Virus record (IMG/VR): IMGVR_UViG_2778261513_000004
Direction: 5' to 3' (one strand)
DNA from: a virus
Taxonomy: Duplodnaviria; Heunggongvirae; Uroviricota; Caudoviricetes
Length of the DNA: 42,950 bases
Shown: one piece after another, positions 30,001-33,000 of the stretch
How the letters are laid out: each line of letters begins with the position of its first letter
Numbering within the stretch: position 1 is the stretch's first letter
Made by a program: the position numbers

Positions 30001-33000
30001 AAGCAGGCTTGAACCGACGCACTTTTATCATTTCCTGAGAACAGAAAAAATCAAGTGCCCCTTTATCTGTTGAACAACACTGATAGTTGTTAACTACTTC
30101 CGCTTATGGCCCAAAACAGACAACCACGCTAGCTATATCCTGTGCCATGAAAATGTCAATTCACATATGAATTAATGGTCTTTAATCTCGTCACTTCAAT
30201 CAATGCCGAACATTTCCCTGATAAAATGCTAATACACGCTGCATAACTTCACTCTTCCGGCACTCGCGACAAATTATGTTCTGACGCCTGTCATAACGAC
30301 GTATTTCTCCGTCTGGTAATGACCAAATAAGGTCCGGATCAACCACAACTGGTTTCTTCACCTTTGCCCTCGATAGTTTTTTGCGGGCGTTTTGCCAGTC
30401 TTGACGTGCCTGCTCAGACGGAAATAACCCATAGCCAGAGTTGTATACATCACCATTCGCAACCAACTCCCTGGCAAGAGCGCTTATCAGATATCTTGTC
30501 GCCCCCGTTTTAGCTTCCAGTTGTCGTAACGTCTCTCGCCCGCTCTGGCGTACAAGATCAACAATCTGCCCTTTAATTTTTTCTCGCTCTTCCTGTGTAA
30601 ATACTTTTGCCATAAGCCCTCCCCAGGAATCACTTTTCCGACACAATACGACTGGAGGAATCGACAATCTGTCGGACAATATCCCGGTGCTTGTTCAGCT
30701 CCCGCAGCGCGGCGCAGACTCGCTCCCACTTCTGGACATGACTTTTCGCCCGGCGCAGTTCGCGGTTTGCCAAATGCAGCGATGGTAAAATCAGGCCATT
30801 CGCTCGCGTTTCAGTGAACGATGGTAGTAACTGCACAAGGTCCGCCACAGTTTCTGTTTTAATTTCCTCCTGTGTTGCCGCTTCCTGTACTGGTAACGCA
30901 ACACCGGCTGGCTGAGGAAAGGCTTTACCAGATGTTTTCGCTACCGATACAACTTTCGGCTCTGCTGGTAAATTACCGTCCGGCAGGCAGTAACGAAATT
31001 TACCGTTCTGATTTACGCGAATCAGACGACCTTTGCTGATGGCCATAGCCAGCGATGAGTTCACCCTGCGGGAAGTAATTCTGAATATCAGTGCAAGTTC
31101 ATCAGCCGCTTTAGGGCCATGCTGTTCAATCGCCTCGATCAGCATTTGCGCTGTCACTTTAGAAGCCTGTGCCACAGATGCGTTTTCGTCGGTTTGAGTC
31201 AACCACCACATCGGGCCCTTGTTATCAGCTTCCCCGCGACGCTTCAGTTTCCACAGCTCGTTAATCGCCTCATCCCGGGTCATTCCCAGACGTGCTGCCA
31301 CTTCCTGGGAAGAGGCTTTTCCCATTGCTTTCAGTGCGTCAAAAACGGTCTCCATTAAAATTTCCTCCCGGTAAAAATTACTTCTCAACTCAAACAAAAC
31401 CAGCCGCTTTCCGGCGTTCATATTCCTGTTTCAGCAACTCAATTGGCGTTGGTCCCGACGGGCGTTTGGGTGCCGCCAGTTGTCGCCGGACTGGCGGAAT
31501 GCTCAGGCCATTACCAACATGCTTTGCCCATTTCGTCAGTTGCCATTCTGCAAGCCGTTTTAACTCCCCTTCGGTCATCTGGCGCTCAATCCCCTTTGAA
31601 CGCATCTCGAGGCAAATGTGATACAGCACAGGCTGAGACCACGGGTATTTATCGCTTCCGTCGTATCGCCAGGACTCATTGCGCCAGCGGCGGTATTCCT
31701 CCATCACGGCATCCACCGTCAGACCGAATGGATTGGCTCCGCTTTCCGAAATCAGCGCCACAAACTCAGCCAGGTCCGGAGGCCATGTTTCACCCGCCCG
31801 GCAGCGGTCCATGCACTGGCGGCAGACCTGCCGGATTTGCTGCTCAGTCATCGCGCCAATCTGTGCAATCCAGAGCTTCGAAGGTGCGGCCCCGTTCTTC
31901 TGGGTCCAGCGGTTCGAATAAACCTCCCCCATGAGTTCCCACAGCTTCCAGGCCGTTTCCGTCGCTGATAAATCCGTTTTCACGTTCCCACTGCTCACGT
32001 GCTGCCCGAATTTCCTGAACTGCTCGTGATGCGGTGCCACCTGGTGCTGCTGCATGGTTTACCCCCTTGCTGACTGGTTTAACCTGCGCCCTGACGTGAT
32101 TTACGTGACGGGCGAATTTCTGCTCCCACTGAATCTGCGTGAACACTTTCCCCTCCGCTGCCCAGTAGTCCCGGAAGGCTGCAAATTCAGCTGGTGTAAA
32201 TTCCGGCTCAGGCAGAGCCACTCCCCACAGAGCAGCCCGTCGTCGAAAATCCGGAGACGGATGCCAGCCATCGGTCATCGGAAATTTCCCGATGGGTTCG
32301 CTCATGCCGTCCAGATATTCGGGCTCTGTTGTCTGCGATGGCGTACCGTTCGACTCACTGGTCGGAGCTCTCTCGCGCACGCGCGCGTTATGTGTGGGGT
32401 TTAATTCTTTTAGATCTGTATCTGTATTTGTAGTTGTCGTAGTAACTACTTCGTAGTTGCTAACGTAGTTGTTCGTAGCTTCTACGGTAGTTATTTTCCC
32501 TTCTACGATTTGTGTTATTAACGATTTAATACACTCGCTCTTAACAAACCATTCACCATTAACTCGATAATCAGATAGCAATGCATGAATTGATGATTCC
32601 GATTTTTCTACGGTTTTTATCGTAGCTACTACGCTAAGATTACTACCGTAGCTACGTCGTAGTTCTCCAAGCCTTGCCCAGGGATTTTTTGAATATCCGA
32701 TCTTCACAGTATCCATTTCCGTGCTGGTCACGAAATAAACGTATCCCCTGTATTCAGATAAATTTTCTCCCTCTGGTAATTTCTTCCCTCTTAGCGCTGT
32801 AACGATATTTTTAAGGTCGCGCTCAATCCGAAGATGCACCCATTCGTCGCCGTTATCGCAAAAAAACTCCCGCAAAGATGGTTCAACATCAGCCCATCGC
32901 TCGTTAGTCAGACGGGCAATTTTTGCCAGCCTGTTTTTGGGTATTGGCTTTCCTGTTTGCCAGTAATTGAACATCAGCAACAAATACGCACCGTGCTCCT

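Follow-up and report, generated by a model that had tools for sequence, protein, structure and literature searches.

A two-cluster pentamer array inside a prophage initiator gene: a candidate replication origin that travels with a T5orf172-like domain

What do the short repeats inside the initiator gene of a prophage do, and if they form a replication origin, which part of the initiator reads them? The question arises from the tailed-virus (Caudoviricetes) record IMGVR_UViG_2778261513_000004, of which a stretch of 42,950 nt, here called the window, was analysed. Its initiator, or replisome-organiser, gene on the minus strand (31844-33070) carries two clusters of CGTAG/CTACG pentamers that flank an AT-rich stretch, just as an earlier note made from this DNA had described. 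The evidence set out below suggests that this array acts in cis as a binding site for protein and that it is, most likely, the replication origin of the prophage.

The array stands well apart from its surroundings. Twelve of the 37 pentamers in the window start within 32438-32658, where about 0.2 would be expected per 246 nt, and no other 246-nt stretch of the window holds more than two. Cluster A (32438-32507) comprises six pentamers, which on the coding strand read as two CGTAG followed by four CTACG, and encodes residues 205-228; residues are numbered throughout on the 425-residue open frame (31844-33121, minus strand) rather than on the 408-residue product. Together with a degenerate ACTACA centred near 32430, this cluster makes up a series of six direct ACTAC(G) units at intervals of 9-14 nt (mean 11.4). 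A 12-nt unit within it, AGTAGTTACTAC, which starts at 32439, differs in copy number among near-identical Escherichia coli alleles and thereby resembles iterons, which vary in the same way. Cluster B (32608-32662) consists of six further pentamers in alternating orientation, encodes residues 153-172 (ELRRSYGS..SVVATIKTVE) of the T5orf172 domain and forms a run of palindromes that overlap one another, among them the 10-bp CGTAGCTACG. Between the clusters lies a spacer of 100 nt with 31% GC (32508-32607), a candidate DNA-unwinding element that encodes residues 172-205, and in each of the 13 homologues examined, those from Pseudomonas included, its GC content is lower than in the flanks of the gene. 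The earlier note had placed the whole array in a Thr/Val-rich linker, which is true only of the distal end of cluster A; cluster B and the AT-rich spacer instead encode the T5orf172 domain, the spacer covering its C-terminal half and the helix after it.

Counted as CTAC/GTAG cores, the repeats amount to 17 units with the extended consensus TAG-y-W-R-CTACG-r. A repeat finder and Tandem Repeats Finder (TRF) report the same direct and inverted repeats, and single-strand folding of the array region (z=-2.9) is what palindromic pentamers would give. Across the replication/immunity region (29.8-35.5 kb), the pentamers form the only sizeable array.

Could the encoded peptide alone account for these repeats? 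In that case the array would have no function and would be a by-product of a low-complexity peptide, of codon bias or of replication slippage; indeed, part of cluster A and the adjoining (ACAGAT)n tract are slippage-prone, and copy number differs between alleles. However, the pentamers occupy all three reading frames, and when residues 151-233 were recoded synonymously under four codon models, with 20,000 trials each, the mean count was 1.7-2.8 and the maximum 10. Since no recoding reaches the observed 12, the peptide does not explain the repeats, and the objection foreseen when they were first described, that they merely echo repeated codons, is not borne out. Cluster B, furthermore, lies in a folded domain and not in low-complexity sequence, synonymous sites are frozen across genera, and in one relative, locus L098, the array has been repositioned yet retained. 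An array devoid of function is thus largely refuted and in our judgement very improbable.

The comparison with distant relatives bears directly on this point. Searches by protein and by sequence pattern yielded about 25 loci, in Phytobacter, Leclercia, Kosakonia, Pseudomonas and many viral contigs, whose modules show 36-97% identity, and each of these loci carries 6-13 pentamers in two clusters at matching relative positions; the same architecture occurs in Raoultella, Citrobacter and Enterobacter proteins. When 18 non-redundant sequences were aligned by codon, GTA GTA GCT ACG (encoding VVAT), ACC GTA GAA and TAC GGT AGT are essentially invariant at four-fold sites, and the tyrosine codons of cluster A are always TAC, as against 50-62% TAC in the rest of the module. 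The fraction of the major codon at third positions has a mean of 0.87 and a median of 1.0 in the pentamers and of 0.61 and 0.59, respectively, in the rest of the module (Mann-Whitney p=7e-4). Both classes of site come from the same sequences, so that any effect of shared ancestry falls on them equally. The array is under DNA-level constraint beyond the needs of the protein. In L098, it is the GIY strand, and not helix 1/strand 3, whose codons underlie the first cluster, yet the two clusters and the (GATAAA)n tract that follows are kept, which points to a constraint on the DNA in or beside the coding sequence of the domain and not on particular codons.

Which protein feature, then, accompanies the array? 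Within initiator genes, the T5orf172-like domain is its only constant protein partner. The N-terminal domain is mostly DUF1376, with exceptions in four loci (L009, L044, L045 and L098, the last with a sub-threshold Phage_rep_org_N match), and the C-terminal domain is DnaT-like, unrecognised or, in L009, absent. The downstream gene encodes a lambda-P-like protein, a DnaC/IstB-like protein, a DnaB helicase or a DEAD helicase, and the upstream gene a YdaT-like, Bro-N/ANT, CII-like, VRR-NUC or unknown product. In the viral collection, whenever the conserved 16-mer CGTAGTAGCTACGRTA has 8 or more pentamers close by, the locus encodes a T5orf172 domain; the 16-mer as such has 37 matches in viral contigs, about half of which have only 2-5 pentamers in the vicinity and no T5orf172 hallmark, and these were taken as chance and left uncounted.

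Several candidate readers and one general explanation were considered and set aside. DUF1376 was rejected as the reader of the pentamers because its coding segment is 98% identical in the Rac prophage of E. coli K-12, whose gene has no pentamers, and the C-terminal domain, the loader and the upstream gene were rejected because each of them varies while the array stays. The idea that internal arrays are a general property of T5orf172 genes was also discarded, as distant stand-alone T5orf172 genes show no comparable enrichment.

Two loci deserve mention in their own right. In L009 (a Logan contig of SRR25399861, 181-4625), the T5orf172-bearing organiser stops right after cluster A, its TAG stop lying within a pentamer, and is flanked by a ParB_N-methyltransferase fusion and a DEAD/ResIII helicase, neighbours which imply that the cassette occurs in a non-lambdoid replication module too. 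A contig of a giant-virus metagenome-assembled genome (L093, IMGVR_UViG_GVMAG-S-1101169-99_000001) has 7 pentamers in about 200 nt (~1040-1240, reverse strand) with no T5orf172 hallmark in the frames read, which may be a coding-strand effect or chance.

These data are compatible with a model in which the array is an iteron-type origin with a geometry like that of the Staphylococcus aureus pathogenicity islands (SaPIs), recognised by the initiator, probably through its T5orf172-like domain; judged on sequence, the chances that this full model is right or wrong appear to us about equal. Clustered short repeats beyond chance, an adjoining AT-rich region and DNA-level conservation together with a linked initiator, which are sequence features of iteron origins, are all present. 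We infer initiator binding, the identity of the reading domain and origin activity; specifically, an origin is favoured because the array occupies the initiator slot of a replication module, is the only array in the region and has the layout of proven origins. According to this model, the two six-pentamer clusters would be short iterons flanking an AT-rich unwinding element, and the initiator encoded by that very DNA would bind them as an oligomer. The likeliest reader of the pentamers would be the T5orf172-like, GIY-YIG-derived domain, alone or with the helix after it, because it always travels with the array. In the manner of lambda O and P, the DnaT-like C-terminal domain would then recruit the P-like loader and host DnaB.

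The closest parallel in layout comes from S. aureus. SaPI origins contain 6-12 penta- or hexanucleotide iterons in both orientations, divided equally between the two sides of a central AT-rich region, and are recognised by the element's own initiator (PMC9371898). The present array, with 6 + 6 pentamers around 100 nt of 31% GC, resembles these origins of SaPIs and phage-inducible chromosomal islands, but it shares no sequence homology with them and lies inside the coding sequence of the initiator, whereas the SaPI origin is intergenic, just downstream of rep. Moreover, the SaPI reader is the winged-helix domain of a self-loading helicase of the superfamily 3 (SF3) type, while the protein studied here is a non-helicase initiator with a separate loader, P-like in the window and DnaC-like in relatives.

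The second parallel is phage lambda, whose origin has four iterons of about 19 bp on one side of an AT-rich region. Here, too, the initiator gene comes first in the replication module and contains the candidate origin, a P-like loader gene follows and overlaps the initiator gene, and the repeats sit beside an AT-rich segment near the boundary between the N- and C-terminal parts of the protein. In contrast to lambda, there are twelve 5-bp cores in two clusters, and the repeats are linked to a T5orf172-like domain and not to an O-type N-terminal domain, with no match to the O family. The likeness to lambda ori drawn in the earlier note is therefore sound as an analogy, in the position within the initiator gene and the P-like loader after it, and does not extend to homology. 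By analogy, the DNA element would work most like a SaPI- or lambda-type iteron origin, from which it differs by lying in the coding sequence of a nuclease-superfamily domain.

That nuclease ancestry raises the question whether the domain binds the array or cuts it. The window protein retains the residues expected of an active GIY-YIG enzyme in its GYVYF, NPWARL, IH and GEWF motifs, namely the GIY tyrosine, the helix-1 arginine, a histidine and the glutamate of GEWF. These residues are what one would expect if T5orf172 were an active nickase and the pentamers its cleavage motifs within the origin, so that nicks made by the initiator, and not simple melting, would start replication or switch it to a rolling-circle mode. 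CNNNG is the cleavage motif of I-TevI, and both CGTAG and CTACG fit it; this is a weak lead, as one position in 16 would match CNNNG by chance. A precedent for origin cutting is found in phage ICP1, whose Odn, composed of a DNA-binding domain and T5orf172, cuts an origin at its iterons, an activity killed by E180A (PMC8263062).

The distribution of catalytic residues, however, argues in the other direction. The histidine has changed to alanine and the glutamate to aspartate in the L016/L084 group and in L045, and the glutamate has become serine in L038, yet two-cluster arrays are kept in all of them, with 11-14 pentamers in the L016 group, L084 and L038. In L016, L036, L038 and L084, where the catalytic-helix histidine (residues ~157-162 of those proteins) has given way to alanine, the new codons TCC GTA GCT ACG add an extra CGTAGCTACG palindrome. 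The lost histidine codon has thus become part of a palindrome, which suggests that the DNA motif outranks catalysis. As catalytic residues decay while arrays stay, the conserved role is more likely recognition than catalysis, and we consider a nick-site array unlikely.

Odn (Gp88) is informative in further respects. It resembles the window protein in joining an initiator-type DNA-binding domain to T5orf172 and in acting at an iteron origin (PMC8263062). It differs in being an anti-satellite weapon without a domain that recruits a helicase loader, whereas the protein described here occupies the initiator slot and has a DnaT-like C-terminus; in targeting the ~30-bp iterons of another element through a RepA_N-like domain, whereas the repeats here lie in the protein's own gene; and in that the nuclease residues are dispensable in some lineages of the present family.

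A broader proposal combines both activities in a so far undescribed class of initiators, in which a GIY-YIG-derived domain would read the origin and, where its catalytic residues are intact as in the window, would also nick it; we find this doubtful. Equally tentative is the companion idea that the origin of this class consists of CNNNG-type pentamers in the coding sequence of the domain itself, so that reader and site would form one swappable cassette. Our search of the literature turned up no account of initiators that bear T5orf172, nor of their repeats, and such proteins are annotated merely as 'DUF1376 domain-containing' or 'replication protein'.

In the structure of the gene, the module stands out as a cassette. 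The T5orf172 module (~32434-32823) has 39% GC, compared with 58% for the downstream part of the gene, and takes the place, in frame, of the basic linker of about 63 residues in Rac-type YdaU, with the protein alignment rejoining at TDTDLKELNPTH; what is substituted is the T5orf172 domain together with the repeat-bearing segment. Both ends of the gene resemble common prophage genes of E. coli: the first 300 nt are 98% identical to K-12 Rac ydaU DNA, and 1,885 of 5,426 complete E. coli genomes have DnaT-like/P modules that match the last ~590 nt. By contrast, the middle of the gene (~32434-32823) occurs in only 10 of the 5,426. The right-hand junction of the swap is the conserved ACTACAAATACAGATACAGATCTAAAAGAATTAAACCCC (32396-32434), which includes an (ACAGAT)n microsatellite, detected by TRF, and one GATC. 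Alleles with and without T5orf172 have it in common, and it is present in Rac-type alleles and in L082-L084. Its synonymous sites are invariant at residues 230-235, and its repeat number differs between loci, so that the protein reads (TD)n or (KD)n. The module had no match among 50,697 phage records when searched by blastn in distant mode. The architecture, which the earlier note had called unusual, is indeed rare in E. coli but, on the relatives collected here, recurs as a family among prophages of Enterobacterales and Pseudomonas.

A clean in-frame replacement of lower GC content, rare and patchily distributed, is also what a selfish or offensive element might leave behind. The module could be a homing-endonuclease-like insertion, or an Odn-like nuclease that attacks the origins of competing Rac-type phages, with targeting through the shared DUF1376 domain, and in either case the pentamers would not be an origin. 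T5orf172 genes are proposed homing endonucleases, and Odn is itself a chimera of an initiator DNA-binding domain and T5orf172. This explanation, however, leaves unexplained why 12 pentamers are frozen at synonymous sites over deep divergence and why the array stays where catalytic residues decay, and the T5orf172 domain belongs to the only initiator-type gene in each replication module examined. Taken together, we regard a selfish or weapon cassette as improbable.

Rac YdaU/YdaV itself offers the nearest comparison for the gene as a whole. In addition to the nearly identical DUF1376-coding DNA, the two systems share the gene order racR/cI-like, cro-like, ydaT, ydaU-type and loader, and have the TNKDxDLKE/(GATAMA)n junction in common. 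Rac YdaU differs in having a short basic linker in place of T5orf172 and TGTTCAAACA repeats instead of pentamers, and the K-12 protein has a different C-terminus and a DnaC-like partner.

The linker that follows DUF1376 in T5orf172-less alleles has repeats of its own. TGTTCAAACA occurs twice in K-12 Rac ydaU (L001) and in 98E11 (L003) and once in Rac-SA53 (L002), joined in each by one inverted copy, TGTTTGAACA, within about 70 nt, and there are no other copies in each 5-kb locus; in the relatives from Salmonella (L082) and Kosakonia (L083), repeats of this type seem degenerate. TGTTCAAACA and TGTTTGAACA are candidate Rac-type iterons and possibly correspond to oriJ, for which we found neither functional data nor a location in the literature on DUF1376, YdaU and oriJ.

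Several observations weigh against the reading of the pentamer array as an origin that is read by the T5orf172 domain. No DnaA box was found in or beside the array, the nearest match being about 1.4 kb away, and a promoter scan of 32200-32900 gave no promoter-like site. The pentamer is unchanged from E. coli to Pseudomonas, whereas pairs of initiators and iterons usually diversify. In characterised T5orf172 proteins such as Odn, T5orf172 acts as the nuclease, while a distinct DNA-binding domain recognises the sequence (PMC8263062), and in related putative homing endonucleases recognition likewise lies outside T5orf172, in a DNA-binding domain (PMC8096241). Finally, T5orf172-less relatives (the K-12 Rac, Rac-SA53, 98E11, Salmonella and Kosakonia loci) have no array, with at most one pentamer per gene and none in four of the five. 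Since DUF1376 initiators without T5orf172 need no such array, it may be accessory to, and not the core of, a DUF1376-family origin.

DNA-level conservation alone, moreover, fits an operator as well as an origin. The pentamers might control expression through binding of the initiator or of a host factor, with no role as an origin, for example in autoregulation or as a roadblock to transcription entering the P gene and beyond. The CapR repressors, which derive from the DNA-binding domain of T5orf172 endonucleases, show that relatives of these enzymes can be domesticated for regulation (PMC8096241). The derivation of CapR from the DNA-binding domain, and not from T5orf172 itself, gives no support for T5orf172 as the reader. 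The missing promoter-like site in 32200-32900 speaks against an operator too, the layout, with an AT-rich core between two clusters in an initiator gene, is origin-like, and no candidate regulator co-varies with the array. We therefore consider an operator array quite improbable, and an origin within the initiator gene remains the reading that we favour.

What kind of initiator would read such an origin? The open reading frame (ORF) extends up to 33121, and its likely start is Met18 at 33070, which yields a product of 408 residues; this assignment draws on the ORF list, Pfam and RefSeq relatives, which begin MAALPYM. The domain search proposed in the earlier note confirmed both domains that it had named and added a third. 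Specifically, the N-terminal DUF1376 domain (32813-33058, minus strand; residues 22-103) is predicted to be helical and winged-helix-like and matches its Pfam profile at E=2e-25, with 89.4 bits against a gathering cut-off of 30.1, which places the protein in the YdaU/DUF1376 family. The T5orf172/MUG113 domain of the GIY-YIG superfamily (32543-32746, minus strand; residues 126-193; Pfam E=7e-10) scores above the gathering threshold for both profiles, with 39.7 bits for T5orf172 (cut-off 20) and 38.9 bits for MUG113 (cut-off 22.3). The DnaT-like C-terminal domain (32084-32284, minus strand; residues 280-346), which the earlier note lacked, is matched by Pfam at E=3e-17 with 62.4 bits (cut-off 25) and is presumed to be the partner of the P-like loader.

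In an AlphaFold2 model, the initiator has three folded domains along with a linker that is disordered. A Foldseek search with the whole model was informative for the DnaT-like domain alone, which matched the single-stranded-DNA-binding domains of DnaT (4ou6 and 6aeq) with 56-60% identity, target TM 0.88-0.93 and E ~8e-6; for DUF1376 it gave only weak similarity to IclR/MarR winged helices. A PDB sequence search with the domain alignment returned no match. The lambda O family Phage_rep_O was not found by hmmscan against Pfam-A at E<=0.1, which returned only DUF1376, DnaT, T5orf172 and MUG113. The 'O-like' label given to the gene in the earlier note consequently applies to its position only, and the protein is, by its profile matches, a YdaU/DUF1376-type replisome organiser with a DnaT-like C-terminus and not a lambda O homologue.

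Together with its neighbours, the gene makes up a prophage early-right operon of Rac-like, lambdoid type, in the order cI-like repressor (33794-34252, plus strand), cro-like gene (33540-33794, minus strand), YdaT-like gene, initiator, lambda-P-like helicase loader and DUF1627 gene. The loader gene (31390-31851, minus strand; Pfam Phage_lambda_P, E=5e-16), whose start was deduced from RefSeq relatives and the sequence, overlaps the stop of the initiator gene by 8 nt (ATGACTGA). An Rfam scan of 31800-33800 gave nothing meaningful. Just past the replication module, a 326-residue ORF (28800-29780, minus strand) has no Pfam match at E<=0.001.

Elsewhere in the window, tandem TTTTGCGCA(G/C) units (14904-14979; TRF periods 10-36) lie inside an ORF (14021-15115, minus strand) that is a small terminase subunit by Pfam (Terminase_2), and this second array is a candidate pac site. 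Beside the terminase gene, an ORF at 15306-16238 (minus strand) encodes a TET-associated glycosyltransferase (Pfam TAGT, E=6e-36), which hints that this temperate phage may hypermodify cytosines.

These results give a sharply defined candidate origin of about 270 bp to this variant of the initiator family. YdaU/DUF1376 initiators occur in prophages of about one third of complete E. coli genomes, and our search of the literature found neither a published function for them nor a mapped origin within their genes. The analysis predicts that a nuclease-superfamily domain has been recruited to read or nick an origin. If this is true, the pairing of initiator and origin would be unlike those of lambda O, RepA-type proteins and SaPI Rep, and a domain and its binding sites would be encoded by the same DNA and exchanged together. 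It would also provide a tie to ICP1 Odn, where initiator and T5orf172 modules recombine. In addition, the pentamer array offers a simple signature for the annotation of origins in this prophage family.

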